Notes: a model not told the origin generated them from the letters alone. A DNA stretch of 64,000 nt from Myxococcota bacterium (GCA_965250285.1 OZ252299.1:5472001-5536000), one strand, 5' to 3'. Shown: positions 1,332 through 17,948, numbered from the stretch's first letter. Numbers and translations: made by a program.

Positions 1332-1456
1332 CAAGCCGTTGCAGCGGACTTGCTAACGCTGAGGCGATCTCGGGTCGTGGTAGAATCTCGGGTGTCCGAG
1401 GTGTTCAGTTGCTGCGAGCAAGGCCGCCGCAAGCCGCTGAACGCCGACCGTTAGGT
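1326..1456 (+). repeat. attC site, class A
   Basis: GGCTAAC...GTTAGGT. Confidence 0.95.
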
Positions 1457-1464
1457 GGCGAAGC

Positions 1465-1890
1465 GTGAAGCTGCTGCTCGCCATACTTGTTCCGGTCGTG
1501 CTCGGTTCTTCATTGGCGCTTAGCTGCGTTCCGGACCCGGTGCCTGTGTTGGTGTTCAACAACTCAGGCTCGCAGCTCTTACTCTTCGTCTACGACCGTG
1601 GCTACCGGCTTAGCCCGGGTGACTCTCAGCAGATTGATTTGTACGGCGATTTCAGCACCATATCTGTCTACCTTCCCCGCGGTCGATTCGAATACCTGGT
1701 CTTCTTCGATGAGCTCACGGTCGACTTTCAGAGGCTGATCGGCGGCGAGTACCGCATCCAGATCGAACCAGACCTCCGTGCATTCATCCTGGAGAAGCGC
1801 ACTCGTCCCCCTGTTGACACTGAGAAGATGGTTCAGCCTCCTGGGTTTCCTCTGGTTCCTAAGCTCGCAGAGGCTTGGTCTGCCACCTAA
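1465..1890 (+). CDS. Putative lipoprotein cassette
   Basis: Lipobox-like LALSC; stop in R''. Confidence 0.8.
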   Translation: MKLLLAILVPVVLGSSLALSCVPDPVPVLVFNNSGSQLLLFVYDRGYRLSPGDSQQIDLYGDFSTISVYLPRGRFEYLVFFDELTVDFQRLIGGEYRIQIEPDLRAFILEKRTRPPVDTEKMVQPPGFPLVPKLAEAWSAT

Positions 1891-2015
1891 CAAGCCGTTG
1901 CAGCGGACTTGCTGACGCTGAGGCGATATCGGGTCGTGGTACCATGTCGGTTGTCAATGGCGTCTCGGCAGGCCGTGCCAGGTCGGCGCAAGCCGCTGAA
2001 CGCCGACCGTTAGGC
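1885..2015 (+). repeat. attC site, class A variant loop
   Basis: ACCTAAC...GTTAGGC. Confidence 0.95.
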
Positions 2016-2290
2016 CGCGTGGCACAAGGCTCTCTAGTTGTTGGGTGCCGATTCCTGCCCACCGCCTTCTCGGATCGAGCAGCTCGATGCGAGCTCGCTA
2101 GCTAGTTGACCCGCTCGCTTCGCCCTTAGGTCGTTCCCGACAGATCGCATGCGACACATCGCCAGTGTGGCCACAACCGGCTCTCTGGGGCGAGCTACGC
2201 CTTCGGCCTTGCTCATCCCACTCGACTGCCGAACTCCAGCTTGGCAGGGGGTAGGGCGGCAGAGGGTCTGCTCTTCGCACGCGGTCTAAC
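2010..2290 (+). ncRNA. ORF-less cassette copy 1 (candidate structured RNA)
   Basis: ~280-bp body repeated five times; non-triplet indels between copies; nested self-complementarity. Confidence 0.55.
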
Positions 2291-2414
2291 AAGCCGTTGC
2301 AGCGGACTTGCTACCGCTGAGGCGCTTTCGGTTCTTGGTAGAATCTCGGTCGTCCCAGGCGCTCAGTCGCTGCGAGCAAGGCCGCCGCAAGCCGCTGAAC
2401 GCCGACCGTTAGGC
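2284..2414 (+). repeat. attC site, class A
   Basis: GTCTAAC...GTTAGGC. Confidence 0.95.
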
Positions 2415-2420
2415 AGCGGG

Positions 2421-3032
2421 ATGAGTGTCCACCCCGACCAAGTCAAGCCGAATCGCAAGAGTGCACTCACCGGTGGGGCTGCGCTTTTCGTCTTCCTCGG
2501 CTTTATCGTGTTCCTCGCGGTCTTCGCCGGCGATACGTCGCTTCTCTGGAAGCTCGGCGCCGTCGGGTTGCTATCAGCTGGGATCCTGGCTTCATTCCTA
2601 TGGTCGGTGCTGGGGCGAGGTGATTCTCCGACTCCACGGGGCCGTGAGCTTCGGATCGAACGGGGCCGCGTAGCTCAGGTCGAAGGCACCAAGGTCGTCG
2701 CCAGTATCGATGCAACGAAGCCGTTCGCGTACTCGATTCTTGATCGGCACATCGCGACAGACTCTCAGTTCCGCCTGTACCAAGGCCGCGTGGAACTGAC
2801 CTTCTTCAACTCCGACCCTGGCGGCGATGCAGTTGTTCGCGACGTCATCCAGATTAGCTGGCCGCCTCCGAGTCGCGGTGCCAGCAGAAGCGTGGGTCCC
2901 TCATGGGTCGATGGGCTGTCTGCTCAGGCCGATGCTCCGCCCGGCCCGAAGCAAGCACGTTGGCTTGAAGCCCTTACTCTACTCGTGGTCGCCGGTGCAT
3001 TCGCGATCGCATTCGTGGTTCTCTGGCGCTAG
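2421..3032 (+). CDS. Membrane protein cassette (homologue at 52212)
   Basis: ATG just after R'; shares TF.NSDPGG and RGASRSVGPS motifs with 52212 ORF. Confidence 0.85.
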   Translation: MSVHPDQVKPNRKSALTGGAALFVFLGFIVFLAVFAGDTSLLWKLGAVGLLSAGILASFLWSVLGRGDSPTPRGRELRIERGRVAQVEGTKVVASIDATKPFAYSILDRHIATDSQFRLYQGRVELTFFNSDPGGDAVVRDVIQISWPPPSRGASRSVGPSWVDGLSAQADAPPGPKQARWLEALTLLVVAGAFAIAFVVLWR

Positions 3033-3048
3033 GGGGGAACGCGCCGCA

Positions 3049-3179
3049 GCCTAACAAGCCGTTGCAGCGGACTTGCTGACGCTGAGGCGGTATCGAGTCA
3101 TGGTAGAATGCCGGGCGTCCGAGGCGTTCGGTCGCTGCGAGCAAGGTCGCCGCAAGCCGCTGAACGCCGACCGTTAGGC
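3049..3179 (+). repeat. attC site, class A
   Basis: GCCTAAC...GTTAGGC. Confidence 0.95.
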
Positions 3180-3186
3180 GGCGCTC

Positions 3187-3603
3187 GTGAGGCTGCTCGT
3201 ACTAGCGACGCTGACAGCATTCCTCGCCTTTCCCCTCGGCGCGTGGGCGCGTTGTCCGCGCGTGTCGGGCCCCCTCGCAGAGTCCGACCTTCGGTCGGTC
3301 GATCTCATCGTCTTCGGTCGCGTCGTGCACGTCGAGCAGGTGCCGAGTGCGCCTCATGAGCGGTTCGCCGACATCCTGGTGCAAGCGCGCTGGCAGGGCG
3401 AGTCACTCGAACGGGTCAGAGTTTGGCCTCCCGACAGCGTTCACGGCCCACGCTTCGTCGCGGGCAGCGAGTTTCTCGTCTTCGCAAACCGGGTCGGCGA
3501 CCGCTACGAAGCCAGCATGTGCCTTCCTTCATGTACCGGGTCCAACTGCCTATACCAGCTAAAACTCCTAGGCGACCCAGTCGAGCGATTCGATACCGGC
3601 TAG
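3187..3603 (+). CDS. Secreted TIMP/NTR-like domain protein cassette
   Basis: Signal peptide, early Cys, DLIVFGRV, WQG, F..G.EFLVFA, terminal Cys cluster. Confidence 0.65.
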   Translation: MRLLVLATLTAFLAFPLGAWARCPRVSGPLAESDLRSVDLIVFGRVVHVEQVPSAPHERFADILVQARWQGESLERVRVWPPDSVHGPRFVAGSEFLVFANRVGDRYEASMCLPSCTGSNCLYQLKLLGDPVERFDTG

Positions 3604-3612
3604 TCAGGCGCC

Positions 3613-3744
3613 GCCTAACAAGCCGTTGCAGCGGACTTGCTTACGTTTGAGCCGATTTGGGTCGTGGTACTATGCCGAATGTCGATGGCGTCTCGGCAGG
3701 CAGTGCCAAATTGGCGCACGCCGCTGAACGCCGATCCGTTAGGC
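3613..3744 (+). repeat. attC site, class A variant loop
   Basis: GCCTAAC...GTTAGGC. Confidence 0.93.
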
Positions 3745-4018
3745 CGCGTGGCACAAGGCCCTCTAGTTCTTGGGTGCCAATTCCTGCCCACCGCCTTGTC
3801 GAGTCGAGCAGCCCGTTGCGAGCTCGGGCGCTAGCTGACCTGCTTGCTTCGCCCTTAGGTCATTCCCGACAGATCGCATGCGACGCATCGCCAAAGTGGC
3901 CACAACCGGCTCTCTGGGGCGATCTTCGCCTTCGGCTTGCTGGTCCAACTCGACTGCCGAACTCCAGCTTGGCAGGGGGTAGGGCGGTAGCGGGCCGGCT
4001 CTTCGCACGCGGTCTAAC
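3739..4018 (+). ncRNA. ORF-less cassette copy 2
   Basis: Homologous to 2010-2290. Confidence 0.55.
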
Positions 4019-4142
4019 AAGCCGTTGCAGCGGACTTGCTACCGCTGGGGTGCTTTCGGTTCTTGGTAGAATCTCGGGTGTCCGAGGCGTTCAGTCGCTG
4101 CGAGCAAGGTCGCCGCAAGCCGCTGAACGCCGACCGTTAGGC
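4012..4142 (+). repeat. attC site, class A
   Basis: GTCTAAC...GTTAGGC. Confidence 0.95.
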
Positions 4143-4416
4143 CGCGTGGCACAAGGCCCTCTAGTTGTTGGGTGCCGGTTCCTGCCCACCGCCTTCTCGA
4201 GTCGGGCAGCTCGTTGCGAGCTCGGGCGCGAGCTGACCTATCTGCTTCGCCCTTAGGTCACTCCCAATAGATCGCATGTGACGCATCGCCAAAGTGGCCA
4301 CAACCGGCTCTCTGCGGCGAGCTTCGCCTTCGGCCTTCTCGTCCTACTCGAGTGCAGAACGCCAGCTTGGCAGGGGGAAGGGCGCCAGAGGGTCCGCTCT
4401 TCGCACGCGGTCTAAC
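4137..4416 (+). ncRNA. ORF-less cassette copy 3 (tandem with copy 2, diverged)
   Basis: Homologous to 2010-2290. Confidence 0.55.
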
Positions 4417-4540
4417 AAGCCGTTGCAGCGGACTTGCTACCGCTGAGGCGGTCCCGGTTGTTGTTAGGATCTCGGGCGTCCGAGGCGTTCAGTCACTGCG
4501 AGCAAGGCCGCCGCAAGCCGCTGAACGCCGACCGTTAGGC
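4410..4540 (+). repeat. attC site, class A
   Basis: GTCTAAC...GTTAGGC. Confidence 0.95.
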
Positions 4541-4545
4541 AGCGA

Positions 4546-4806
4546 GTGCCGAGCTGGCTCCGAAAAATGTACTGGACCGGTATCCAGATACTCGTAGCCG
4601 GGCTCGCGTCTTCCGCCGGCGCGGTCTACTTCTTGTTGCGACCCGTCGGCGAGTATCACGAGCCTTCCGGCTACGGCGAACGACTGGTCGTCGGGCTAGC
4701 CCTGTTCGGCGTTGTCGCGACCATCGGAGGCGCTCGCATTGTCCACCAGGCCAGGCGTTCCGCACCGAATGCCGAGAGTCATCCGAACGAGAATCCACCT
4801 TCGTAG
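4546..4806 (+). CDS. Small two-TM membrane protein cassette
   Basis: ORF fills cassette; two hydrophobic segments. Confidence 0.75.
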   Translation: MPSWLRKMYWTGIQILVAGLASSAGAVYFLLRPVGEYHEPSGYGERLVVGLALFGVVATIGGARIVHQARRSAPNAESHPNENPPS

Positions 4807-4840
4807 GGCTAACGAGCGACGCCATCAGGCCCCGCTCGCT

Positions 4841-4971
4841 GCCTAACAAGCCGTTGCAGCGGACTTGCTAACGCTTAGGCGATATCGGGTCGTGGTAGAA
4901 TCTCGGGCGTCCAAGGCGTTCAGTCACTGCGAGCAAGGTCGCCGCAAGCCGCTGAACGCCGACCGTTAGAT
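4841..4971 (+). repeat. attC site, class A
   Basis: GCCTAAC...GTTAGAT. Confidence 0.95.
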
Positions 4972-4985
4972 GGCGCGAGCGGGTC

Positions 4986-5399
4986 TTGATGCGTTCTCGG
5001 TTGAGCCTTCTTCTGCTGCTCTCGATCGTGCTCCTTCTGTCGATCGCCTGCGACCCCATATACCGTCTACGCGTCACCGGGCCGGTGCCAACGGCGCCGG
5101 TGCCAGACTGCGTGCTCGAATCGCTCGACGCCGACGACCGCGTCACCGAGCCGTCGATAGTGACTCCTGGCGCAATAGCGGCGACGCTAGTCGTACCACC
5201 GAGCATGTCAGTTCCGGAGTCGCATCCCGAACTATCGGTGCACTTCTCCCATACTGAAACGTGGGGTGGTGATCTCGAGATTCAGATGCTGTGGGTGGGC
5301 CCCAAGGCCTCGCGAGAGTACGAGCAGTACGCAACGAATGTCATTCGCGAGCTCCACTTTGTTCTCACCAAGAGGTGCGTTCCGCCCTCCGCCACATAG
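4986..5399 (+). CDS. Putative lipoprotein cassette
   Basis: Hydrophobic leader ending LSIAC. Confidence 0.8.
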   Translation: MMRSRLSLLLLLSIVLLLSIACDPIYRLRVTGPVPTAPVPDCVLESLDADDRVTEPSIVTPGAIAATLVVPPSMSVPESHPELSVHFSHTETWGGDLEIQMLWVGPKASREYEQYATNVIRELHFVLTKRCVPPSAT

Positions 5400-5415
5400 C
5401 AGTTGGGCGCGCGCC

Positions 5416-5544
5416 ATCTAACAAGCCGTTGCAGCGGACGTGGCAACGCCTATGCCGTATCGGTCGTGGTAGGCTTACGGTTTTCGAGGCTTCGGCGTTC
5501 GCGGTGCAAGGTTGCGCCACGCCGCTGAACGCCGACCGTTAGAT
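5416..5544 (+). repeat. attC site, class B (CGTGGC/GCCACG inner stem)
   Basis: ATCTAAC...GTTAGAT. Confidence 0.95.
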
Positions 5545-5558
5545 GGCGGAGACGCGAG

Positions 5559-5906
5559 ATAGGACGTTACAAGTTCAAGCTTGGCCAGAAGCCACGACGA
5601 AAGCGCCGGTTAGATTCCGGGCGTACGCGCATTCGTCGAGGTGGCGATCCGACGGCAGCAGGAAGAGAGCGGGGCGATCCGATTTCTCCCGAAGAGCGTT
5701 GGGTTCCGAGCTTCGACGACGTAATTGCAGCATTGGTCGTCATTTCGCTGATCACATTCTTCATTGCCGCGTTCTGTTCTCTTGGCCACTGTTCATGTGC
5801 GGGGCTGAGTGCTTACTCGAACTCTCGAGTGAGTCTCGTCACTCCGTTGCCCCTGCAGATTCGCCCGCCATCTAACAAGGCGTTGCAGCGGACTTGCTTA
5901 GGCTGA
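5559..5906 (+). CDS. Basic N-terminal single-TM protein, probable ATA start (homologue of 35326 ORF)
   Basis: Hand translation IGRYKFKLGQKPRRKRRLDSGRTR...WVPSFDDVIAALVVISL matches [24 protein letters not shown]...[17 protein letters not shown]; stop inside attC. Confidence 0.65.
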   Translation: MGRYKFKLGQKPRRKRRLDSGRTRIRRGGDPTAAGRERGDPISPEERWVPSFDDVIAALVVISLITFFIAAFCSLGHCSCAGLSAYSNSRVSLVTPLPLQIRPPSNKALQRTCLG

Positions 5907-6000
5907 GGCGATATCGGGTCGTGGTAGACTGCCGGGTGTCCGAGGCATTCAGCCGCTGCGAGCTAGGTCGCCGCAAGCCGCTGAACGCCGACCGTTAGGC
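5870..6000 (+). repeat. attC site, class A
   Basis: ATCTAAC...GTTAGGC. Confidence 0.95.
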
Positions 6001-6040
6001 GGCGACGCATTCGCCCGATCGTCGACGTGGGCGGGCTGCA

Positions 6041-6214
6041 TTGATCGATCTACTCGTCGGTCTCCTAGATCTCAGCCATCTCTGGCGCCTCTTTCTGCCA
6101 CCGGTTCTTCTGGGCGCAGCATGCTTCTTCGCCTGGGGCGGGTCGGCAGCGCAGTACGGTGCTGTAGCCGGTCTTCCTATCGGCCTGGTTTGGGCGCTTC
6201 GACATCGGAGCTAG
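6041..6214 (+). CDS. Small (57 aa) membrane protein cassette
   Basis: TTG-start ORF MIDLLVGLLDLSHLWRLFLPPVLLGAACFF..., below ORF-track size cutoff. Confidence 0.55.
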   Translation: MIDLLVGLLDLSHLWRLFLPPVLLGAACFFAWGGSAAQYGAVAGLPIGLVWALRHRS

Positions 6215-6267
6215 CGCTCATTTCGATCTTCCAAAGGCCGTCTGTTGTCGCGTACTCGCCGGTCGCC

Positions 6268-6398
6268 GCCTAACAAGCCGTTGCAGCGGACTTGCTAACG
6301 CTTGAGCCGATTCGGGTCGTGGTACCATGGCAGCTGTCGATGGCGTCTCGGCAGGCTGTGCCAGATCGGCGCAAGCCGCTGAACGCCGACCGTTAGGC
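6268..6398 (+). repeat. attC site, class A variant loop
   Basis: GCCTAAC...GTTAGGC. Confidence 0.95.
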
Positions 6399-6446
6399 GG
6401 CGGAACTGTGTGCTGAAGCGTGCCGCGGGAATGACGGAGCCCTTCG

Positions 6447-6740
6447 ATGAAGCGAACAGCCTACTCGCCCGAACTGCAGTCGGAACTCGCACATGGTAAG
6501 TATACGAAGTGGGCAGCTGATCTGACTGAAGCCGAGCTTTACAACCTGCTATGGCTCGTAGGCGAGTTCGGCGTTCGCACGCCAGAAGACAGCGAGGGGC
6601 CGGTGATCGGCGCGAGTCACCGACGCGCCGGCGCTCGCTGGGGCATAGTTCAGTATGTCCGCTGCCGGCGAGCGGTGTCGTTCCAGCGCGCCATACGTCG
6701 TTACAATCCAGACGGCTCGTTGAGAAAGCCGAGTGCCTAG
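6447..6740 (+). CDS. Hypothetical protein cassette (duplicated at 13226)
   Basis: ORF fills cassette. Confidence 0.65.
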   Translation: MKRTAYSPELQSELAHGKYTKWAADLTEAELYNLLWLVGEFGVRTPEDSEGPVIGASHRRAGARWGIVQYVRCRRAVSFQRAIRRYNPDGSLRKPSA

Positions 6741-6750
6741 CTCGTCCGCC

Positions 6751-6881
6751 GCCTAACAAGCCGTTGCAGCGGACTTGCTAACGCTGAGGCGATATCGGGT
6801 CGTGGTAGACTGGCCGGTGTCCGAGGCGTTCAGCCGCAGCGCGCAAGGCCGCCGCAAGCCGCTGAACGCCGACCGTTAGGC
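6751..6881 (+). repeat. attC site, class A
   Basis: GCCTAAC...GTTAGGC. Confidence 0.95.
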
Positions 6882-6889
6882 GGCACTCG

Positions 6890-7255
6890 ATGCTTGGCCT
6901 GGCTCGCGCACGGGGCTTGGGTGCTCGCTTGGAGAACGTGGCTCTCTTTGCAGGGCTCACTACTGTGTCCCTGCTCTTCGTGGCCTTGCGCAAGACTTAT
7001 CTCTATCCCGACGATGTCACCATTCCATACCTAAGCGGTCCCAGGCTCTGGTTCTCCGCGAGTCTAATTGCAGGTACCGTCGGCGCCTCTTTGGTGCTTC
7101 GTGTTCGGCGCTCGCAGCGTCTCCGTTTGCGCGGCGTCGCTGCTCTTTCGCTGTCTGCGAGTCCGCTCGTTCTCGTGCTCGCGCTGCTTGTTGTGGTCGC
7201 CGTGGCCTATGTGGCCGGGGTCCAGGTTTTCATCTGGGCGCAAGGTGCCGCCTAA
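6890..7255 (+). CDS. Membrane protein cassette
   Basis: Three hydrophobic segments; stop in R''. Confidence 0.8.
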   Translation: MLGLARARGLGARLENVALFAGLTTVSLLFVALRKTYLYPDDVTIPYLSGPRLWFSASLIAGTVGASLVLRVRRSQRLRLRGVAALSLSASPLVLVLALLVVVAVAYVAGVQVFIWAQGAA

Positions 7256-7380
7256 CAAGCCGTTGCAGCGGACTTGCTCCCGCTGAGGCGATATCGGGTC
7301 GTGGTAGACTGGCCGGCGTCCGAGGCGTTCAGCCACTGCGAGCAAGGCCGCCGCAAGCCGCTGAACGCCGACCGTTAGGC
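7250..7380 (+). repeat. attC site, class A
   Basis: GCCTAAC...GTTAGGC. Confidence 0.95.
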
Positions 7381-7388
7381 GGCCGCTC

Positions 7389-7772
7389 GTGCACGTTCGT
7401 GTGATCTTCATCGGTCTGCTGCTGCTCGGCTCAGCTGCTGGCGACGTCGCTCTTGCAGAACCGGCTTGCCAGATGCCGCCTGATTCTGCCTCGGTCCGAT
7501 CTCGGGTCCTGGGGGCGACGCGTCTGCTTCCAACTTACGTCGATGGAAAGATGGTCGGGCTCACCGTCGACCAGATCGATCCCGACAGTCTCCTGGCACC
7601 TTCCGATCTGCGCGTTGGTGACATGATCGTTGCAGTCAACGGACTCGATATCACCAACCCAAAGTCCGGTAAAGAACTCCTCTGTCGCCTGGGTCGATCA
7701 GAACCGGTCACTATTCATGTTGAGCGAGATTCCGGCGAGCGCGTCCCCATCACCATCGCCGCGGCCGCCTAA
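7389..7772 (+). CDS. Secreted PDZ-domain protein (GspC C-terminal PDZ-like)
   Basis: DGKMVGLTV..IDPDS....LRVGDMIVAVNG...IHVER PDZ pattern; signal peptide. Confidence 0.8.
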   Translation: MHVRVIFIGLLLLGSAAGDVALAEPACQMPPDSASVRSRVLGATRLLPTYVDGKMVGLTVDQIDPDSLLAPSDLRVGDMIVAVNGLDITNPKSGKELLCRLGRSEPVTIHVERDSGERVPITIAAAA

Positions 7773-7897
7773 CAAGCCGTTGCAGCGGACTTGCTAACGC
7801 TGGTTCGATATCGGGTCATGGTAGACTGCCGGGTGTCCGAGGCGTTCAGTCGCTGCGAGCAAGGCCGCCGCAAGCCGCTGAACGCCGACCGTTAGGC
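7767..7897 (+). repeat. attC site, class A
   Basis: GCCTAAC...GTTAGGC. Confidence 0.95.
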
Positions 7898-7905
7898 GGC
7901 CGCGG

Positions 7906-8352
7906 GTGGGTAGCGAAGCCGATCAGATCGAGAAGATCCTTTCTCGCCGCAAGAATGCGCGCGCGAGGCTTTCGCTGTCCTACATGTCCGACACAAAGTG
8001 GGCTCGCGCGCTCACAGCGCTCGCCGAGAAGCACCCGGGCCTCCATTGCACATGGAAGCTGGTAGGCAACCCGGAGCCGTGTCCAGGCCATCTGCCGATC
8101 GAGCCCCCGTTGCGCCAGCAAAGCCACCTCGACGACGGCTGGCTGCTGGCGCCGTTCTTCTTACTCCCGAACTACAGCGATGTCGAATGGCTGGAGGTGC
8201 CAGCTCGAGCCCGTTGGCAGCCGCATCCGAAGCTAGAGCCCGTCACTTCTACTCAAGACATTCAGTCGATCGCCCAAACCCTCGAGGCCGTTGGCTCTCT
8301 CGAACTCGAGGCAACTGAGACGCACCTGCGGCTATACGGCTATCGCCCCTAG
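7906..8352 (+). CDS. Hypothetical protein (DUF6678-like)
   Basis: MSDTKW, Y.DVEWLEV, C-terminal LRLYGYR. Confidence 0.65.
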   Translation: MGSEADQIEKILSRRKNARARLSLSYMSDTKWARALTALAEKHPGLHCTWKLVGNPEPCPGHLPIEPPLRQQSHLDDGWLLAPFFLLPNYSDVEWLEVPARARWQPHPKLEPVTSTQDIQSIAQTLEAVGSLELEATETHLRLYGYRP

Positions 8353-8361
8353 ACGCGCGCC

Positions 8362-10706: not shown

Positions 10707-10723
10707 AGCATGGTCGTGTCTCC

Positions 10724-11077: not shown

Positions 11078-11087
11078 TGCGCATGCT

Positions 11088-11218: not shown

Positions 11219-11228
11219 AGCATCTCCC

Positions 11229-11690
11229 GTGCCGGAAGTTCGCGTCGTTATCCCGGACGAAACCTACGGAATCGTCAAGTTTCGCCAAGACGATCTCCCT
11301 GGTGTTGCCGTCATCAACAAGTCGTTGGTTGGATTCGCGTCGCGGGAGGTCTTTCGGTGGCATCTCTCGATCATGGTCCACTTCGAAGAGATCATCGACA
11401 ACGGTATGCCTGCTCAGGCTGACGTTGGTCTCGTAGATCGATTCGGCGATCAGCTAGATCAGGAACTCAAAGTCGACTCTGAGCGTCCGAATGCCCTCTT
11501 CCTGGGGCGTGTGACCTGGAACGAGACTCGTGAGCTCATCTATCGGGTATACGACCCGGAAGTCACGAACGACCTTCTCCAGCGAATCGTGAGCGATCGA
11601 ACGCATCCTCGAGAGTTCGACTATCGCATTGACGATGATCCTGACTGGGGCCTTGCAGAGTGGCATCTGAATGCGTGCGCTCCCGCTTAA
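11229..11690 (+). CDS. DUF695-family protein
   Basis: NGMP, LFLGRVTWNETRELIYRV, DDDPDW motifs. Confidence 0.75.
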   Translation: MPEVRVVIPDETYGIVKFRQDDLPGVAVINKSLVGFASREVFRWHLSIMVHFEEIIDNGMPAQADVGLVDRFGDQLDQELKVDSERPNALFLGRVTWNETRELIYRVYDPEVTNDLLQRIVSDRTHPREFDYRIDDDPDWGLAEWHLNACAPA

Positions 11691-11702
11691 TGCCCCGATG
11701 CT

Positions 11703-11833
11703 GCCTAACAAGCCGTTGCAGCGGACTTGCTTACGCTGAGGCGATCTAGGGCCGTGGTAGACTGACCGGCGTCCGAGGCGTTCAGCCACTGCGAGCAAGG
11801 CCGCCGCAAGCCGCTGAACGCCGACCGTTAGGC
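11703..11833 (+). repeat. attC site, class A
   Basis: GCCTAAC...GTTAGGC. Confidence 0.95.
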
Positions 11834-12107
11834 CGCGTGGCACAAGGCTCTCTAGTTGTTGGGTGCTGAATCCTGCCCACCGCCTTCTCGAGTCGGGCAG
11901 CTCGTTGCGAGCTCTCCAGCTAGCTGACCCGTTCGCTTCGCCCTTAGGTCATCCCCGACAGATCGAGCGCGACGCATCGCCAAAGTGGCCACAACCGGCT
12001 CTCTGGGTCGAACTTCGCCTTCGGCCTGCTCATCCCACTCCACTGCCGAACTCCAGCTTGGCAGGGGGTAGGGCGCCAGAGGGTCTGCTCTTCGCACGCG
12101 GTCTAAC
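11828..12107 (+). ncRNA. ORF-less cassette copy 4
   Basis: Homologous to 2010-2290. Confidence 0.55.
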
Positions 12108-12235
12108 AAGCCGTTGCAGCGGACATCGTCCAGCTGAGGCGATATCGGCTCTGGTAGTTTCTTGGCAACGAACCAAGTGCGTTCAGCGAGACCGGTCAGC
12201 AGCTGGCCGATGCCGCTGAACGCCGACCGTTAGAC
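12101..12235 (+). repeat. attC site, class C (CATCGTCCAGCTG/CAGCTGGCCGATG stem)
   Basis: GTCTAAC...GTTAGAC. Confidence 0.95.
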
Positions 12236-12251
12236 AGCCGGAGCGGCGCCT

Positions 12252-12632
12252 GTGACGCTCGATCAAGCGCTGATCGCGAGCCTCGGAATCGGAATGCTTG
12301 CGTGCATTGCCCTCGTTCTCAGGGGCTATATCGAGGTTCGCATTCGATTCAGTGGCTTTCTCAGGTCCGAGCGCCCGGAACTATGGTCGCAGCTCGCCCC
12401 TTCTCACAACGACTCCGAAGAGTTCGTCACCCTGGGCATTTTGAGCTTCGATCCCACGCCAGCAATTTCGCGTTTTCGACGCGGGGGCTTTCGCGAGCTC
12501 GCCGACACCGAGCTTTCTGCGCGCTGTGCGCATGCGAACCGCGCGGAGCGCATCGGACTTCTCTCGTGGTTCGCCCTGCTCGCGTGGACGTTGGTCGTGT
12601 TCGGAGTCATCATCGCCTTGCGTGCCGCGTGA
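12252..12632 (+). CDS. Two-TM membrane protein cassette
   Basis: ORF fills cassette. Confidence 0.8.
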   Translation: MTLDQALIASLGIGMLACIALVLRGYIEVRIRFSGFLRSERPELWSQLAPSHNDSEEFVTLGILSFDPTPAISRFRRGGFRELADTELSARCAHANRAERIGLLSWFALLAWTLVVFGVIIALRAA

Positions 12633-12639
12633 ACCGGCT

Positions 12640-12771
12640 GTCTAACAAGGCGTTGCAGCGGACACCGAACAGCTGGATCGAATCGACCGTGTTAGCCTCT
12701 TGGCATCAACCCAGGTGCTTCATCGGCCCGGTCAGCGCCGTCCGGTGCCGCTGAACGCCGATCCGTTAGGC
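12640..12771 (+). repeat. attC site, class D (CACCG/CGGTG stem)
   Basis: GTCTAAC...GTTAGGC. Confidence 0.93.
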
Positions 12772-12801
12772 GGCGTTCGAGTTGACTCGAGACGTACTCG
12801 A

Positions 12802-13053
12802 ATGACAAGGTCGCCGTGGTTGACAGGCTTGGCCCTTGGCATCGTGATCGGGGCCATCGCGGCCGGCTTCGCTGTGTTCGCGGCTCTCGATCACAACCCG
12901 CAGGGCGAGTTCCAGCGCGGTGGCTCGGTCCAGGTCGGTCCTCTTCTCTTGATAGGTGGTAGCTGGTTCGGACTCGTGGGCGCCGTTGTGTGGCTTGTGT
13001 TGGGCTCGGCTCTGGCGATTCTCCGACGAAGGCGCGAACACCACGCCGCCTAA
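12802..13053 (+). CDS. Small membrane protein cassette
   Basis: ATG after R'; DHNPQGEF loop between two TMs; stop in R''. Confidence 0.75.
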   Translation: MTRSPWLTGLALGIVIGAIAAGFAVFAALDHNPQGEFQRGGSVQVGPLLLIGGSWFGLVGAVVWLVLGSALAILRRRREHHAA

Positions 13054-13177
13054 CAAGCCGTTGCAGCGGACGTGGCAACGCCTTCGCTCTATCGCTGGTG
13101 GTAGAATTTCCACATCCCAGGCTTCGGCCGTCGTGGTGCAAGGTTGTGCCACGCCGCTGAACGCCGAACCGTTAGGC
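13048..13177 (+). repeat. attC site, class B
   Basis: GCCTAAC...GTTAGGC. Confidence 0.95.
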
Positions 13178-13225
13178 GGCGGAACTGTGTGCTGAAGCGT
13201 GCCGCGGGAATGACGGAGCCCTTCG

Positions 13226-13519
13226 ATGAAGCGAACAGCCTACTCGCCCGAACTGCAGTCGGAACTCGCACATGGTAAGTATACGAAGTGGGCAGCTGAT
13301 CTGACTGAAGCCGAGCTTTACAACCTGCTATGGCTCGTAGGCGAGTTCGGCGTTCGCACGCCAGAAGACAGCGAGGGGCCGGTGATCGGCGCGAGTCACC
13401 GACGCGCCGGCGCTCGCTGGGGCATAGTTCAGTATGTCCGCTGCCGGCGAGCGGTGTCGTTCCAGCGCGCCATACGTCGTTACAATCCAGACGGCTCGTT
13501 GAGAAAGCCGAGTGCCTAG
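13226..13519 (+). CDS. Duplicate of the 6447 cassette ORF
   Basis: Identical translation. Confidence 0.65.
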   Translation: MKRTAYSPELQSELAHGKYTKWAADLTEAELYNLLWLVGEFGVRTPEDSEGPVIGASHRRAGARWGIVQYVRCRRAVSFQRAIRRYNPDGSLRKPSA

Positions 13520-13529
13520 CTCGTCCGCC

Positions 13530-13660
13530 GCCTAACAAGCCGTTGCAGCGGACTTGCTAACGCTGAGGCGATATCGGGTCGTGGTAGACTGGCCGGTGTC
13601 CGAGGCGTTCAGCCGCAGCGCGCAAGGCCGCCGCAAGCCGCTGAACGCCGACCGTTAGGC
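13530..13660 (+). repeat. attC site, class A
   Basis: GCCTAAC...GTTAGGC. Confidence 0.95.
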
Positions 13661-13676
13661 CGCAACTCGAGCTTGA

Positions 13677-14111
13677 ATGATGCGATGGTCGGTAGATACG
13701 GCGGACGCGCACCGTCTTCTTTGGGCGGTCCTTGATCACTTTGAAGGCAATGCGCTTGTCTCGTTCGAGGGCAGGCTTTCCGACCTCGGGCTCTCGCCCA
13801 TTTCTGGTGCCCGATCAGACGAGTCTTCGGTACTTCGCAGGCACACACAGCTCCCAGTTCAAGACTTCGTAGTTCTACCCGTGAACCGTGAGACGATTCG
13901 CGACGTGAAGCGCTGTCTCTCAGACGTCGAGCTCATCGACGAGTCCGGGCCGGTCATTCACGTCCAGGTCCAATCGGGCGACTCCCTAGTTCTCGGGGCG
14001 TACGACAATTTCGATCCCGAGTGCGTCGTGGTCTGGCCCCCTACGCCAGAGGCGTTGCTTCAAGGGCTCCTCGAGGCCGGCGCCCTCCGCTCGTACAACG
14101 TTGCGGCCTAA
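13677..14111 (+). CDS. Hypothetical protein cassette
   Basis: ORF fills cassette; stop in R''. Confidence 0.8.
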   Translation: MMRWSVDTADAHRLLWAVLDHFEGNALVSFEGRLSDLGLSPISGARSDESSVLRRHTQLPVQDFVVLPVNRETIRDVKRCLSDVELIDESGPVIHVQVQSGDSLVLGAYDNFDPECVVVWPPTPEALLQGLLEAGALRSYNVAA

Positions 14112-14236
14112 CAAGCCGTTGCAGCGGACTTGCTACCGCTGAGGCGATATCGGTCCGTGGTAGCATGGCGGGCATCCGAGGCGTTCCGTGACTGCGAGCA
14201 AGGCCGCCGCAAGCCGCTGAACGCCGACCGTTAGGC
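14106..14236 (+). repeat. attC site, class A
   Basis: GCCTAAC...GTTAGGC. Confidence 0.95.
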
Positions 14237-14512
14237 CGCGTGGCACAAGGCCCTCTAGTTGTTGGGTGCCGATTCCTGCCCACCGCCTTCTCGAGTCGGG
14301 CAGCTCGTTGCGAGCTCTCCAGCTAGCTGACCCGTTCGCTTCGCCCTTAGGTCATCCGCGACAGATCGAGCGCGACGCATCGCCAAAGTGCCCACAACCG
14401 GCTCTCTGGGGCGACCTTCGCCTTCGGCCTGCTCTCATCCCACTCGACTGCCGAACTCCAGCTTGGCAGGGGGTAGGGCGCCAGAGGGTCTGTTCTTCGC
14501 ACGCGGTCTAAC
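14231..14512 (+). ncRNA. ORF-less cassette copy 5
   Basis: Homologous to 2010-2290; 2-nt insertion relative to copy 4. Confidence 0.55.
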
Positions 14513-14640
14513 AAGCCGTTGCAGCGGACATCGTCCAGCTGAGGCGACATCGGCTTTGGTAGCTTGTTGGCATCGAACTCTGTGCGTTCAGCGAGAGCGG
14601 TCAGCAGCTGGCCGATGCCGCTGAACGCCGACCGTTAGGC
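14506..14640 (+). repeat. attC site, class C
   Basis: GTCTAAC...GTTAGGC. Confidence 0.95.
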
Positions 14641-14648
14641 GGCGTTGC

Positions 14649-15080
14649 GTGGATGCTGTCGCGTACGTTCGTCGCGTGATCTGGCTGCCCACGGTTGTCC
14701 CGTTCGTACTAGTTGCCGTAATCGCTGTCGTCGGCTCAAGCGATGGGACAGTTCGATACTCCATTCGTGAGTATCTCGACCATTGCCGCTTCTACGGTGC
14801 GTTTCTGTATCCGGTATACGTTGCAATCGCCCTGTACAACTTTCGCGAGTCCGGCGTCAAGGCCCACTGGGCGCTTCTGTTTGCGACGCCGATCGCATTT
14901 CCGATCTTCTACGCCTCGGTCAACGCAACTCTGTGGTACTACGAAACTGATTGGGGCACGGGCCTTTATTCGTTCTTCCTTTACCTCGGGGGTGCGCTTG
15001 GCGTTCCCATTGGGCTCGCTTTCGCATTGATCGCGTGGGGTCTTTGGCGAGTTCGGTTGCTGCGGCGGAACGCCGCCTAA
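14649..15080 (+). CDS. Multi-pass membrane protein cassette
   Basis: Hydrophobic ORF; stop in R''. Confidence 0.8.
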   Translation: MDAVAYVRRVIWLPTVVPFVLVAVIAVVGSSDGTVRYSIREYLDHCRFYGAFLYPVYVAIALYNFRESGVKAHWALLFATPIAFPIFYASVNATLWYYETDWGTGLYSFFLYLGGALGVPIGLAFALIAWGLWRVRLLRRNAA

Positions 15081-15206
15081 CAAGCCGTTGCAGCGGACTT
15101 GCTAACGCCGAGGCGATCTTGGTTCTTGCTAGAATCTCGGGCGTCCGAGGCGTTCAGTCGTTGCGAGCAAGGTCGCCGCAAGCCGCTGAACGCCGATCCG
15201 TTAGGC
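15075..15206 (+). repeat. attC site, class A
   Basis: GCCTAAC...GTTAGGC. Confidence 0.95.
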
Positions 15207-15214
15207 GGCGAAGC

Positions 15215-15589
15215 GTGACTCGGAGCCAATCCGCAGATGAAGCAACGCTGCGGCGGGTTCGCGACAACATCATCGAGTATCTCGAGATCACCTCGTCGAT
15301 CGAACGGCAGAGGGCCGAGCACCATGTCCCGGGTGAGACGCTCAACTCGTGGGACGACTCCTTCAACGAATCCTGGTTCAAGGCCTACCTTCCTCCGGTG
15401 TTCTCGAACGAGGAGCGCGACGCGATGCTGTCGTTTCACGCGTCGCTGGAGCGGATCTGCTCCCTTCTGCCCGAGCCTCTCCCGACCTTTGACGAGCTGG
15501 CTGCAAATCGTGAATGGCAGCAACTCTGCGAGGCTGCCGCCGCCGCGGCCGCAGTCTTCCGCCACCGGGGGCGCTCCTCGTCTGCTTAG
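15215..15589 (+). CDS. Hypothetical protein cassette
   Basis: GTG start after R', in frame with track ORF 14951-15589. Confidence 0.8.
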   Translation: MTRSQSADEATLRRVRDNIIEYLEITSSIERQRAEHHVPGETLNSWDDSFNESWFKAYLPPVFSNEERDAMLSFHASLERICSLLPEPLPTFDELAANREWQQLCEAAAAAAAVFRHRGRSSSA

Positions 15590-15599
15590 CCGGTTCGCC

Positions 15600-15730
15600 G
15601 CCTAACAAGCCGTTGCAGCGGACTTGCTAACTCTGAGGCGATATCGGGTCGTGGTAGACTGGCCGGCGTCCGAGGCGTTCAGTCGCTGCGAGCAAGGCCG
15701 CCGCAAGCCGCTGAACGCCGACCGTTAGGC
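15600..15730 (+). repeat. attC site, class A
   Basis: GCCTAAC...GTTAGGC. Confidence 0.95.
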
Positions 15731-15746
15731 GGCCTGGCCGACCCAC

Positions 15747-16259
15747 ATGCCGGACCCGACAGACACGCTGATGATCCTCGTAGAGGCCGCTGCCGCCGTA
15801 GCGGGTTTCTCGGGCGTAGTGGTCGTCTTCGGTCGCCGTTCGGCTGGCGCCTGGTCCGATCTCGAGCGCACTCGCTTGTTCAATCTTCTCTTCACGAGCT
15901 TCACAGTTCTCTTCTCATCGCTCGGAGCGCTCGTCCTACTTCATGCAGAGCTGAGCGATTCTACGACCTGGCGAATCGGGAGCATTAGCTGGTCCGTTTT
16001 GTCGACTTGGCAGATCGCATCGGTCGCACGAGCCTACTCCTCCCTTTCGCGCAGTGATCCCAATCGCCCACACGTAGCCATTCCGGTAGTTCTTCTCGGG
16101 TTGACGGCTGGTCTTGTGGTTCTCAATCTGTACAACGCCTTTGTAGGCACGCCTGAATTCTGGCGTTTTCTTGCAGCGCTAGTCTGGCTTCTGGCGCTCG
16201 CCTGGTACTCGTTCGCACAACTTCTTCTGGTAGCCAGCCGAGGCGAGCAGGCCGCCTAA
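15747..16259 (+). CDS. Membrane protein, 'E...A.AGF.G' family (5 paralogues in window)
   Basis: EAAAAVAGFSGVVVVFGRR; stop in R''. Confidence 0.85.
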   Translation: MPDPTDTLMILVEAAAAVAGFSGVVVVFGRRSAGAWSDLERTRLFNLLFTSFTVLFSSLGALVLLHAELSDSTTWRIGSISWSVLSTWQIASVARAYSSLSRSDPNRPHVAIPVVLLGLTAGLVVLNLYNAFVGTPEFWRFLAALVWLLALAWYSFAQLLLVASRGEQAA

Positions 16260-16382
16260 CAAGCCGTTGCAGCGGACGTGGCAACGCTGTGCCGATATCG
16301 CGCGTGGTAGAATGTCAGCATCACAGGCTTCGGCCGGCGCGGTGCAAGGTTGTGCCACGCCGCTGAACGTCGACCGTTAGGC
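16254..16382 (+). repeat. attC site, class B
   Basis: GCCTAAC...GTTAGGC. Confidence 0.95.
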
Positions 16383-16390
16383 GGCGCGAG

Positions 16391-16879
16391 TTGCGAGCCT
16401 CTTCGATCCATACCGCCGTGGTTCTCTCAGCCCTCATAGGCTGCGCAACAACCGATCTCGCTGCGATCCCCTCGGAAGAGTGTCACTACTTACTGCCGGC
16501 ATTCTTTGGCGAACAGGACGAGTTTCGCGCGATCCGTCAGGGCGACGACTTTCATGCCGTTCAGGTACCACCCGTCGGGCCGGACGGTGAGTCGCCCGAC
16601 CGCCGCCGCTTCGCCGAGCTAGTGACAGACGTCGATTCTCACTGGTACCGCATCGACGACACCGCTTACGCTTGGTTCGGCGAAGGGCCAGCTCTGCGCT
16701 TTCCCTATTCTGGCTATCTAGCTCGGGTGCGGGAGATCTGTTCCGATTGCGAGGTCGGCGACTCGATCATGCATCCGGCCCCCGGCCTGGAGGCGGAGTG
16801 CATCGCAGTCGACGCTGAGCCGATATCGCTGCCGGACGGGCTTCGATTCCAAGATATCGACCCTGCACACTTCAAGTAG
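16391..16879 (+). CDS. Putative lipoprotein cassette
   Basis: Lipobox LIGC. Confidence 0.8.
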   Translation: MRASSIHTAVVLSALIGCATTDLAAIPSEECHYLLPAFFGEQDEFRAIRQGDDFHAVQVPPVGPDGESPDRRRFAELVTDVDSHWYRIDDTAYAWFGEGPALRFPYSGYLARVREICSDCEVGDSIMHPAPGLEAECIAVDAEPISLPDGLRFQDIDPAHFK

Positions 16880-16904
16880 TCCGCACACGCTCACTTCGCG
16901 CGCC

Positions 16905-17034
16905 GCCTAACAAGCCGTTGCAGCGGACTTGCTAACGCTTGAGCCGTATCGGGGCGTGGTAGAATTGCGAAGTCCGAGGCGTTCAGTCGCTGCGAGCAAG
17001 GCCGCCGCAAGCCGCTGAACGCCGACCGTTAGGC
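16905..17034 (+). repeat. attC site, class A
   Basis: GCCTAAC...GTTAGGC. Confidence 0.95.
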
Positions 17035-17045
17035 CGCGAGAAGCT

Positions 17046-17297
17046 GTGCAGATGCACATCGTCGCATTCGCTGCGTTCGCTGCGGCTTCGGCGGTCTTCC
17101 TCGTCAAGATCGTTCCGCGGCTACTTGTCGATGATCCTCATCAGCCGTGGGCGCTGAGCCTCATGGTTGTGCCCGCCTATCGCCGATACTTCGCGATCTG
17201 TCGAGAGAATCGCGAGTCGCCAATGTGGGCACTCGTTAGCCTTACCCTCTTCGCTGTGTCTGCGGCGGCCGCCGTGGTTGCGGTTCGCTTCGCTTAG
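17046..17297 (+). CDS. Small membrane protein cassette
   Basis: ORF fills cassette. Confidence 0.75.
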   Translation: MQMHIVAFAAFAAASAVFLVKIVPRLLVDDPHQPWALSLMVVPAYRRYFAICRENRESPMWALVSLTLFAVSAAAAVVAVRFA

Positions 17298-17306
17298 CCG
17301 CTCGCG

Positions 17307-17437
17307 GCCTAACAAGCCGTTGCAGCGGACTTGCTACCGCTGAGGCGATATCGGGCCGTGGTAGAGTGACGGGTGTCTGGGGCGTTCAGCTGTTGCGAGC
17401 AAGGCCGCCGCAAGCCGCTGAACGCCGAACGTTAGGC
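17307..17437 (+). repeat. attC site, class A
   Basis: GCCTAAC...GTTAGGC. Confidence 0.95.
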
Positions 17438-17444
17438 GGCGGGA

Positions 17445-17948
17445 TTGCAGGGCCAGCTTTCACTTGAGGCAATTGCGGAGATCTCAATCGCCCTCGCCGG
17501 GTTCTCCGGTCTGATTGCCATGGTCAGAAGTGGCCCCGTCCACGACTGGCACCCGCGGGTTCGACTCGCGTTCTGGATTAGCCTCAACTGGAGTATTGCA
17601 GCGGTGGCCCTGAGCCTGCTCCCGTCGTTGCTAATCACTTTCGGCCCATCAAGCTGGGTACTTCTAAACGGCGTAGCGAGCATCGTTCTTGTTGCTGGAC
17701 TGGCGTTGATGCTCTGCGCGCATCTTCATCTGAATCGCCAAGGATCACCAACGCAGAACCCGTGGCATTGGGTGGCGAACATCTCCGTCATTGCCGTCGG
17801 TGCGGTCGGAACCCTGTCGGCTCTGCTTGGCGCTGGCGACGGCGCGAGCTTCGAGTCGTTCAGATTCGGGGTCATCTCTTGCCTACTGGCTGCGTTGCCG
17901 GGCTTCTTGGCGAGCTTCCGAGTTCGAAGTCCCTCGCCCGCCGCCTAA
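17445..17948 (+). CDS. Membrane protein, 'E...A.AGF.G' family
   Basis: EISIALAGFSGLIAMV; stop in R''. Confidence 0.85.
   Translation: MQGQLSLEAIAEISIALAGFSGLIAMVRSGPVHDWHPRVRLAFWISLNWSIAAVALSLLPSLLITFGPSSWVLLNGVASIVLVAGLALMLCAHLHLNRQGSPTQNPWHWVANISVIAVGAVGTLSALLGAGDGASFESFRFGVISCLLAALPGFLASFRVRSPSPAA

Follow-up and report, generated by a model that had tools for sequence, protein, structure and literature searches.

How cassettes far from the integron promoter Pc are transcribed, and how cassettes without a ribosome-binding site (RBS) are translated, are questions in integron biology that this locus allowed us to address; about 20% of cassettes have no recognisable initiation region (for both points, accessible sections of PMC8876359). 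We analysed a window of 64,000 nucleotides from a Myxococcota bacterium (OZ252299.1:5472001-5536000) that carries a long cassette array, for which a preliminary description had proposed that the attC recombination sites supply both promoter and RBS. We conclude, with a probability of a little under 0.6, that in this sedentary chromosomal integron the AGGCGG or AGGTGG half of the R' box acts as a mismatched Shine-Dalgarno (SD) sequence for a start codon 14-16 nt past the crossover G, and that the RNA concerned probably arises from a predicted extended -10 element in the upstream attC. For this attC family, both questions would be answered by an R' box that serves as SD sequence together with a promoter inside each attC, and a recombination box used as SD sequence would limit the possible models of cassette formation.

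A sedentary chromosomal integron

The locus is an integron of a known type, sedentary chromosomal. Its integrase matches the IntI profile TIGR02249 over the full length with 438.9 bits (cut-off 265), and intI lies about 650 nt 5' of the first attC.

G000:C1:5462834-5463778, + strand: intI; the array runs upstream of the window as far as this gene
1..18072 of the window, + strand: the window's share (35 sites) of a 49-site array, canonical attC length 120-126 nt

The attC boxes R'' (RYYTAAC), R' (GTTRRRY) and L''/L' with an extrahelical base are present in these 49 and five further sites. A structural attC scanner recovered 49/49 sites and gave 0 hits in 1 Mb of background, and in the bottom-strand hairpin of a cassette's own attC, folded with DNA parameters, R-box pairing averaged 0.97 and L-box pairing exceeded 0.5 in 37/52. 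Between intI and the first cassette, the candidate attI region near L001:2658 contains, on a by-eye reading, GTTAGGC without an upstream R'' arm. Duplicate cassettes occur at separate array positions, which indirectly points to IntI-mediated excision and insertion. Few of the 23 scanned cassette proteins could be named by Pfam: DUF6678 and DUF695 scored above cut-off, a PDZ domain below. A phylum-wide pattern search matched 17/401 genomes, with at most 4 copies outside the host genome, and found no second large array.

Since the crossover falls between G and TT of GTT, the hexamer goes with the downstream cassette and the predicted promoter with the upstream one; that the right half of R' is contributed by the downstream cassette is stated in 10.1101/2023.11.21.568050. 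The preliminary description, in which the attC supplies both signals, needs amending on this point, as they belong to two cassettes. The hexamer is the complement of its own cassette's 3' arm and is conserved first of all for this pairing, so recombination accounts for its existence.

Many start codons follow an AGGYGG half-site at SD distance

All ten distances reported previously from the G of GTT to a start codon were exact; the ORFs that begin there are 121-167 aa long and take up their cassettes.

1378..1386, + strand: extended -10-like element TGGTAGAAT, predicted promoter in the upstream cassette's attC, at the junction of GTG 1465
1453..1458, + strand: R' AGGTGG, likely SD for GTG 1465 (ORF 1465-1890); upstream arm mismatched, own arm at 1883 matches
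3176..3181, + strand: AGGCGG, likely SD for GTG 3187 (ORF 3187-3603, signal-peptide-like N-terminus); -10 element 3101-3109; predicted unoccluded (P 0.05)
6878..6883, + strand: AGGCGG, likely SD for ATG 6890 (ORF 6890-7255); -10 element 6803-6811; upstream arm at 6749 predicted paired (P 1.0)
7377..7382, + strand: AGGCGG, likely SD for GTG 7389 (ORF 7389-7772, PDZ-like, under the Pfam cut-off); -10 element 7302-7310; occlusion predicted
7894..7899, + strand: AGGCGG, likely SD for GTG 7906 (ORF 7906-8352, DUF6678); -10 element 7819-7827; 15-nt match, the strongest predicted occlusion
10109..10114, + strand: AGGTGG, likely SD for ATG 10122 (ORF 10122-10583); -10 element 10034-10042; occlusion predicted
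14637..14642, + strand: AGGCGG, likely SD for GTG 14649 (ORF 14649-15080); -10 element 14557-14565
15203..15208, + strand: AGGCGG, likely SD for GTG 15215 (ORF 15215-15589); -10 element TGCTAGAAT at 15127-15135; occlusion predicted
16379..16384, + strand: AGGCGG, likely SD for TTG 16391 (ORF 16391-16879, lipoprotein-signal-like N-terminus); -10 element 16305-16313; occlusion predicted
17434..17439, + strand: AGGCGG, likely SD for TTG 17445 (ORF 17445-17948); -10 element 17359-17367; poor predicted upstream-arm pairing (P 0.22)
17941..17949, + strand: own 3' arm of one cassette (CCGCCTAAC), given as an example; complement of the 5' half-site, containing the ORF's TAA stop

The TTG start at 17445 is matched in 14/16 homologues. 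ORF 14649-15080 has a paralogous cassette outside the window, on its upstream side, which likewise starts at +15, with ATG.

The host is an SD user whose 16S tail ends in GAUCACCUCCUUUCU. Among 249 host starts chosen blind to SD sequences, GG.GG peaks at -12 (range -15 to -9) with a median duplex energy of -6.8 kcal/mol. Against the same tail, AGGCGG reaches -6.6 and AGGTGG -7.2 to -8.7 kcal/mol, and the weak half-sites AGGCAG and AGGCCG -3.6/-4.0 and -2.7 kcal/mol. The GG.GG of the half-site begins at -10 to -12, inside the host's SD range. AGGCGG is enriched 2.6-3.2-fold in this range of host genes (p 0.01-0.02; 8-9 genes), and only some 1% of the genes carry it; AGGTGG shows no enrichment there.

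We compared start positions among cassettes of the host genome, keeping those with an own-arm match of at least 7/9, ORF cover of at least 75% and at least 70 aa, and excluding starts inside the R' box (before +9); 52 cassettes gave 40 non-redundant ones, of which 34 were retained as coding. A start at +14..+16 follows 14/20 AGGYGG and 1/14 other half-sites (Fisher p 3.6e-4), where the range was set post hoc, the threshold between strong and weak half-sites was our choice and the 14/20 include one paralogous pair. At the in-frame NTG rate of host cassettes (0.044 per codon, 59/1356), 14/20 has a binomial p of 3e-15, and out-of-frame NTG occurs at these positions in 0/40. Elsewhere in the host genome, beyond the stretch described previously, the counts are 4/6 for strong and 1/3 for weak half-sites. 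The claim that the close starts have no other SD sequence also held, as 0/14 non-redundant AGGYGG cassettes with a start at +14..+16 have an anti-SD match outside R' (best -2.2 kcal/mol). The window contains 16 AGGYGG sites in all, and six, left out of the preliminary description, have their long ORF farther out.

Distant-start AGGYGG sites: 5994 (+47); 6392 and its duplicate 13171 (+55); 8486 (+43); 12765 (+37); 15724 (+23)

Of 11 cassettes that combine a weak half-site with a distant start, only 6 have an SD sequence of -4.4 or better. The gap between stop codon and 3' arm is the same in the strong and weak classes (p 0.97), hence the effect on start offset is specific to the 5' end. Within one gene family, members in the host genome, at L209 and L224 and at the more distant L147 combine AGGYGG with a start at +14/+15, and members with other half-sites start later: L210 (AGCCGG) at +30 with its own GGAGG, L222 (AGACGG) at +19. 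Because start position covaries with half-site strength, the spacing fits that of the host and the 3' end serves as a control, an RBS role of the AGGYGG half-site is supported within the host genome at the level of sequence comparison.

For other genomes, sequence comparison supports such a role weakly. Among their cassettes (165 rows, 133 and finally 62 kept), supplemented by a hold-out (27, 26 and 12), starts at +14..+16 follow 5/27 AGGYGG and 5/47 other half-sites (p 0.48) and starts at +16 or less 9/27 and 6/47 (p 0.07); long attCs alone gave 7/17 versus 2/28 (p 0.017, with a cut-off picked post hoc). The fresh hold-out of 60 loci and 12 usable cassettes ran in the opposite direction (0/4 versus 3/8) and left the link between strength and offset unsupported; permutation within 10 mixed loci gave p 0.42.

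A promoter-like element inside every attC

TGnTAnnnT, with its n positions free, occurs in 53/53 distinct attCs, at a background of 0.1% per 35 nt, and TAnnnT at -12 is also found ahead of host leaderless-type genes (18/249). The element is selectively kept in decayed sites.

18657..37713, + strand: 19 decayed attC relics, TAAC and GTT mostly lost, -10-like element kept (13/19 TGnTAnnnT, one more TAnnnT)

The A/T positions of the -10-like element are retained at 0.79-0.89 in these 19 relics, those of the R'' TAA at 0.32-0.47, and the A of AGG (9/19) is kept no better than the TT (6/19 and 10/19). A -35 element was not found, and a standard -35/-10 scan of 1300-8500 returned 0 sites. Long attCs elsewhere carry TGnTAnnnT at -59..-70 in 37/76 cases, and those of the hold-out carry it in only 6/19. 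The conservation pattern together with the selective retention in decayed sites supports the predicted promoter role of this element, and on these comparisons the promoter half of the proposal is better supported than the RBS half.

Predicted masking of the hexamer depends on the neighbouring cassette

The upstream arm had been suggested to hide the RBS in read-through RNA. Folding predicts this at 7/10 of the sites named and at 11/15 genome-wide, but not where the neighbour's arm differs: the arm is a perfect complement of the hexamer at only 6/10 sites (CCGCCTAAC at 6875, 7374, 7891, 15200 and 16376; CCACCTAAC at 10106) and is a different arm at 1450, 3173, 14634 and 17431. Transcripts from the internal promoter would indeed lack the upstream arm; yet in full-length mRNA the hexamer is predicted to be bound at 10/10 sites by the perfectly matching 3' arm of its own cassette. 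Opening is predicted to cost 16.3 kcal/mol when the RNA reads through and 10.3 when it begins at the internal start; keeping the upstream arm open gives 10.8 (n=15; p 0.003 and 0.0003), and the host median is 8.2 kcal/mol. Such masking most likely arises as a by-product of attC symmetry that varies with the neighbour, rather than as a tuned switch.

Alternative explanations

The +15 start might reflect packing geometry: a cassette template with an inverted arm of 12-13 nt at each end and the ORF fitted flush between them, in which GTTAGGCGGC with a start at +15 is a lineage default and the likeness to an SD sequence is incidental. The complementarity between hexamer region and own arm indeed spans 12-13 nt and ends 2-3 nt before the start, and stop codons are tightly packed as well, 15/34 lying in the R'' TAA and 9/19 of the others at an arm distance of 16-18 nt, almost a mirror image of +15. 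Only the host genome shows the sharp peak at +15, two unrelated ORFs (1465 and 15215) share a GAAGC linker, and the CGGC tail is kept elsewhere in variants that are not SD-like, such as AGACGGC. Packing would, however, place starts equally far behind all half-sites, whereas starts behind weak ones lie farther out (1/14) and the 3' gap is independent of class; the start moves with the half-site inside a single gene family, and 11/14 close starts are GTG or TTG without another SD sequence, although some 80% of host starts are preceded by one. We regard packing as an unlikely explanation. Very unlikely, in our view, is translational coupling, in which ribosomes would read a frame from the R'' TAA to the TAG of GTTAG and reinitiate about 10 nt on, comparable to ORF-11 of attI1 and short attC ORFs; such a mechanism is reported for class 1 integrons (accessible sections of PMC8876359). 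This frame is open over the whole attC in 35/53 sites and contains TTG and GTG, although the attC copies are homologous, so that the open frame amounts to roughly one observation. A start after the -10 element is found in only 22/53 sites and at variable positions, the frame is broken ahead of 15200, and the TAG stands behind weak and strong half-sites alike, which leaves their covariation with start position unexplained. A conserved leaderless mini-ORF from the internal start to the R' TAG was considered and rejected, as it is not conserved among attCs.

Occlusion could also be an evolved switch that silences downstream genes in read-through RNA and permits translation only from the internal promoter, as in T4 gene e, a layout that the locus shares with T4 gene e and I-TevI as described in the accessible part of PMC3014915. 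The pairing predicted at 11/15 junctions and the extra opening cost of about 6 kcal/mol would suit a switch. The masking arm is nevertheless that of a shuffled neighbour, a perfect match of arm and half-site arises in 35% of possible pairings, and the complementarity is already needed for recombination; at equilibrium the own 3' arm is predicted to pair too, and the arm would be opened by any ribosome that terminates on it. An evolved switch appears quite unlikely.

Proposed mechanism and implications

Under the SD reading, selection for expression would have kept the start codon behind a strong half-site at the distance that suits an SD sequence best, and cassettes with weak half-sites would need a longer leader. 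In read-through RNA, more tentatively, a matching upstream arm may mask the hexamer, and a ribosome terminating on that arm, which often contains the TAA, might unmask it. Each junction would then be a self-assembling expression unit, with the upstream attC as promoter, the incoming R' as RBS, the arm match setting read-through translation and terminating ribosomes lifting the mask; we consider this full scheme somewhat doubtful. If true, it would mean that distal cassettes are expressed without Pc, that shuffling retunes translation through the identity of the neighbour, and that decayed attCs persist as domesticated promoters. A search of the integron literature found no statement that R' acts as SD sequence or that a promoter lies wholly inside all attCs, although older class 1 cassette papers may mention either; a built-in expression module of an integron is likely undescribed.

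Comparison with known systems

The array resembles the Vibrio VCR-type sedentary chromosomal integrons in its IntI above the TIGR02249 cut-off, its R''-L''-L'-R' sites of about 122 nt, a single ORF per cassette, the R' right half brought by the downstream cassette and repeated gene-less cassettes. It differs in that VCR-type cassettes are described as mostly lacking promoters, the exceptions lying in the 5' UTR or the body of the cassette, whereas here every attC has a conserved -10-like element; the R' half-site tracks start position, and intI is co-oriented with the cassettes. In Vibrio sp. DAT722, as described in the accessible part of PMC2945992, the cassette 20/21 promoter likewise uses attC sequence to transcribe the downstream cassette, but there only the -35 lies in the attC and the -10 is unique to one cassette, in contrast to the whole extended -10 predicted here in all distinct attCs.

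For class 1 integrons, Hanau-Bercot 2002 and Jacquier 2009, as summarised in the accessible sections of PMC8876359, deal with ORF-11 of attI1, with short attC ORFs and with attC hairpins that hinder ribosome progression. Like our proposal, these models account for cassettes without a recognisable initiation region, have a hairpin lower downstream translation and make use of the core-site TAG; they invoke reinitiation and blocked ribosome movement, where our proposal is that R' pairs directly as SD sequence and can itself be masked. Among class 1 cassettes, only a minority showed altered downstream expression once attCs were deleted (PMC11511950). The T4 genes e and I-TevI also sequester the SD sequence in long transcripts and free it when the promoter omits the 5' arm, but in the accessible account (PMC3014915) the arm is fixed to the gene and the effect is a measured 100-fold, whereas the arm in this array is the recombination box of a shuffled neighbour and its effect a prediction.

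Closest to the proposed use of R' are the class 1 aacC cassettes, which have an AGGTGG half-site, a start at +13 or +16 and a leader without another SD-like stretch (PMC9410878, Table S1). By our by-eye count of that table, starts at +13..+16 occur in 5/5 AGGTGG leaders, all of the one homologous aacC family, and in 3/62 other leaders; the R box is not named as the source of their translation in the accessible part of the paper. Among class 1 cassette leaders in the same source (Fig. S1), AGGAGG matches at -12..-7 gave the best correlation with GFP output (R2 0.69), and a start at +15 places the hexamer at exactly these positions. The use of R' as SD sequence may extend to clinical aacC cassettes; AGGTGG leaders at +13 and +16 are already represented in an E. 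coli reporter collection (PMC9410878).

Integron setting

The source genome (G000) is a single contig (C1) of 68.6% GC, with the window at positions 5472001-5536000. In it, 49 canonical attC sites lie 3' of the integrase, 35 of which end inside the window. The array is an ordinary sedentary integron, accompanied by a separate attC cluster near which no integrase match was found (109-111 kb):

G000:C1:5462834-5463778 (L001:1501-2445, integrase region), + strand, as the cassettes: integron integrase intI (TIGR02249, 438.9 bits, cut-off 265)
G000:C1:109239-111527, plus one relic at 113964: CALIN-like cluster, five attCs belonging to the array's family

A probable attI lies ~210 nt downstream of intI, which is co-oriented with the cassettes; in most integrons the two are divergent. 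Bottom-strand attC DNA folded with the R' of the same cassette gave a mean predicted R box pairing of 0.97, and L box pairing above 0.5 in 37/52 sites. An internal inverted repeat (GGCGTTCAGC / GCTGAACGCC) of most 122-nt attCs, e.g. window 6829-6870, vies with L'' for L', weakens the predicted recombinogenic fold in 15/52 sites and would place a hairpin at the 5' end of the internal transcript. Among recurrent cassettes, an apparently gene-less family of 398-404 bp (window 2009, 3738, 4136, 11827, 14230, plus four more copies 5' of the window) has own arms differing at one R-box position, GTTAGGCC versus GTTAGACC. A 456-bp cassette (window 5538, 9036 and G000:C1:5467438) carries a 110-codon ORF with its ATG inside the R' box (+5); this ORF may be spurious, no such ATG being present in a related cassette near 109.9 kb.

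Start codons and the R' half-site

The preliminary description proposed that R' doubles as a ribosome-binding site, citing ten starts 14-16 nt behind the G of its GTT (+14 to +16). All ten distances are correct, and each start opens a cassette-filling ORF. The window holds 16 sites with the strong half-site AGGYGG, ten followed by starts at +14 to +16 and six by starts farther out. Genome-wide, 34 of 52 cassettes were counted, all non-redundant, matching their own arm at 7/9 or more positions and carrying an ORF of 70 aa or longer that fills at least 75% of the cassette, taking the first in-frame NTG past +9 as start and ignoring Shine-Dalgarno (SD) matches. Starts at +14 to +16, a range originally picked on these same data, follow 14/20 AGGYGG (one paralogous pair counted twice) versus 1/14 other half-sites (Fisher p 3.6e-4); given an in-frame NTG background rate of 0.044, the binomial p is 3e-15. 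Outside the window the counts are 4/6 versus 1/3.

Individual starts agree with this placement. TTG 17445 matches the starting residue of 14/16 aligned homologues (21 hits in all), whose annotated starts may reflect an SD bias common to gene callers, but sequence conservation in the family also sets in there. In a paralogue of the ORF at GTG 14649 an ATG occupies the identical +15, the DUF6678 match behind GTG 7906 begins at residue 19 with the next Met only at 27, and ORFs 1465, 3187, 7389 and 16391 have, by eye, signal-peptide-like N-termini. AGGCGG cassettes at window 6392 and 13171 and G000:C1:5469756 show an in-frame GTG at +16 or +15, whose frame is closed by a stop upstream of the main ORF.

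The host 16S tail is GAUCACCUCCUUUCU, and 249 host starts picked without SD information show a GG.GG peak at -12 and a median duplex of -6.8 kcal/mol. AGGCGG (-6.6) and AGGTGG (-7.2 to -8.7 kcal/mol) form duplexes of this order; the weak half-sites AGGCAG (-3.6/-4.0) and AGGCCG (-2.7) pair less stably. The 14 close-start AGGYGG cassettes, 11 of them with GTG or TTG starts, contain no second anti-SD match better than -2.2. Before host genes AGGCGG is rare, yet 2.6-3.2-fold above chance (p 0.01-0.02); AGGTGG shows no detectable enrichment.

Alternatively, tight cassette packing could set the start distance irrespective of SD strength. Stops are packed as well: 15/34 fall in the R'' TAA, and 9/19 of those left sit 16-18 nt from where the arm ends. 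Packing accounts for the lower limit of ~+13. It does not explain the later starts behind weak half-sites while the 3' gap is equal in both classes (p 0.97), nor the 17445 family, which starts at +14/+15 behind AGGYGG (here and in loci L209, L224 and L147), but at +30 behind AGCCGG (L210) and at +19 behind AGACGG (L222). Translational coupling via a short attC ORF, akin to ORF-11, would draw on the frame shared by the R'' TAA and R' TAG, which is open in 35/53 sites and resembles ORF-11 and short attC ORFs (PMC8876359, PMC4670013); however, this frame does not separate strong half-sites from weak ones and lacks a conserved start within the internal transcript (one is present in 22/53). In two unrelated ORFs (window 1450-1467 and 15200-15217) the half-site is followed by an identical five-base linker and a GTG, possibly a trace of cassette assembly.

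Outside G000 the strength-offset trend has the expected sign, and the sharp +15 peak is peculiar to G000. A set of 200 loci, from metagenomes and from genomes other than this one, gave 62 cassettes, in which +14 to +16 starts follow 5/23 AGGYGG versus 3/39 others (p 0.13), and starts up to +16 follow 9/23 versus 3/39 (p 0.006, post hoc). Twelve cassettes from 60 fresh loci ran in the opposite direction (0/4 versus 3/8). Pooled counts are 9/27 versus 6/47 (p 0.07), or 7/17 versus 2/28 in long attCs alone (p 0.017), and the within-locus permutation gave p 0.42. Spacing, duplex energy and the start-position link in G000 favour R' as a ribosome-binding site, the replication elsewhere being statistically weak; we consider this role likely (probability about 0.6).

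The half-site matches its own cassette's 3' arm at a mean of 8.7/9 (the inclusion filter itself requires 7/9 or more), versus 6.8/9 for the upstream arm, and this complementarity usually spans 12-13 nt. Such a match is expected because crossover cuts R' after G (10.1101/2023.11.21.568050). Recombination therefore accounts for the hexamer's existence, and its SD role can only be, at most, an added use that moves along with its own gene.

A predicted promoter within attC

The proposal that attC supplies both promoter and ribosome-binding site finds support for the -10-like element; the hexamer belongs to the downstream cassette, since R' is split after G. TGnTAnnnT (n positions free) occurs in 53/53 distinct attCs ~63 nt before the G (background 0.1% per 35 nt). 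TAnnnT lies exactly at -12 in 18/249 (~7%) strictly chosen host starts, in genes without room for an SD, a leaderless-gene signature. No -35 element was found for this predicted promoter in a scan of window 1300-8500. Elsewhere, the full element is present in 37/76 long attCs and 6/19 in the hold-out.

In 19 decayed attCs downstream of 18 kb (window 18657-37713), the element's T/A positions are kept at 0.79-0.89 and the full pattern in 13/19, while retention of the R'' TAA is down to 0.32-0.47 and that of the two Ts in GTT to 0.32 and 0.53; the detecting HMM contains the element, a possible bias, though every column of the model has weight. Just 9/19 relics keep the A of AGG, so they back the promoter without speaking for or against the SD. 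A promoter inside attC is, in our judgement, quite probable. Along this decay gradient, intact genes follow sites that have lost TAAC and GTT and kept the -10-like element, which suggests that these cassettes may have become fixed in place and their attCs domesticated as promoters. Eight diverged paralogues of a small protein family (window 18825, 20438, 26278, 28247, 32727, 34010, 38524, 61127), several behind relics, have a common N-terminal coding repeat (family D15).

Predicted masking of the proposed ribosome-binding site

The suggested hiding of the hexamer by the upstream arm in read-through RNA is predicted (P at least 0.8) at seven of the ten named sites, not at 1450, 3173 and 17431, and at 11/15 genome-wide. 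The mean predicted cost of opening the SD-to-start region is 16.3 kcal/mol in read-through RNA and 10.3 from the predicted internal start (host median 8.2); holding the upstream arm open, as under a terminating ribosome, gives 10.8. The masking arm is a shuffled neighbour's, perfectly matched in 35% of pairings. In the full-length mRNA the own 3' arm is predicted to pair with the hexamer at 10/10 sites at equilibrium, although it lies 400-600 nt off and under translating ribosomes. Incidental, neighbour-dependent masking is plausible, and tuned occlusion would be rather unlikely.

Comparison with known systems

The whole scheme of ribosome-binding site, promoter and occlusion is put forward from sequence and predicted folds. 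Our search of the integron literature found no description of R' serving as an SD or of every attC carrying a promoter; older papers and supplements could hold one. As a caution on the masking, attC deletion seldom altered downstream output in class 1 tests (PMC11511950). According to PMC9410878, AGGAGG matches at -12 to -7 are the best correlate of GFP in class 1 leaders (R2 0.69), and a +15 start places the hexamer of this integron at those very positions; by our by-eye count of its Table S1, AGGTGG leaders start at +13 to +16 in 5/5 cases (one aacC family) versus 3/62 others. Partial precedents for the promoter are a single one that spans an attC in Vibrio DAT722 (PMC2945992) and scattered transcription starts inside one attC (10.1101/2023.11.21.568050). 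The gating of T4 gene e (PMC3014915) has a similar working layout, but its fixed arm is missing here.
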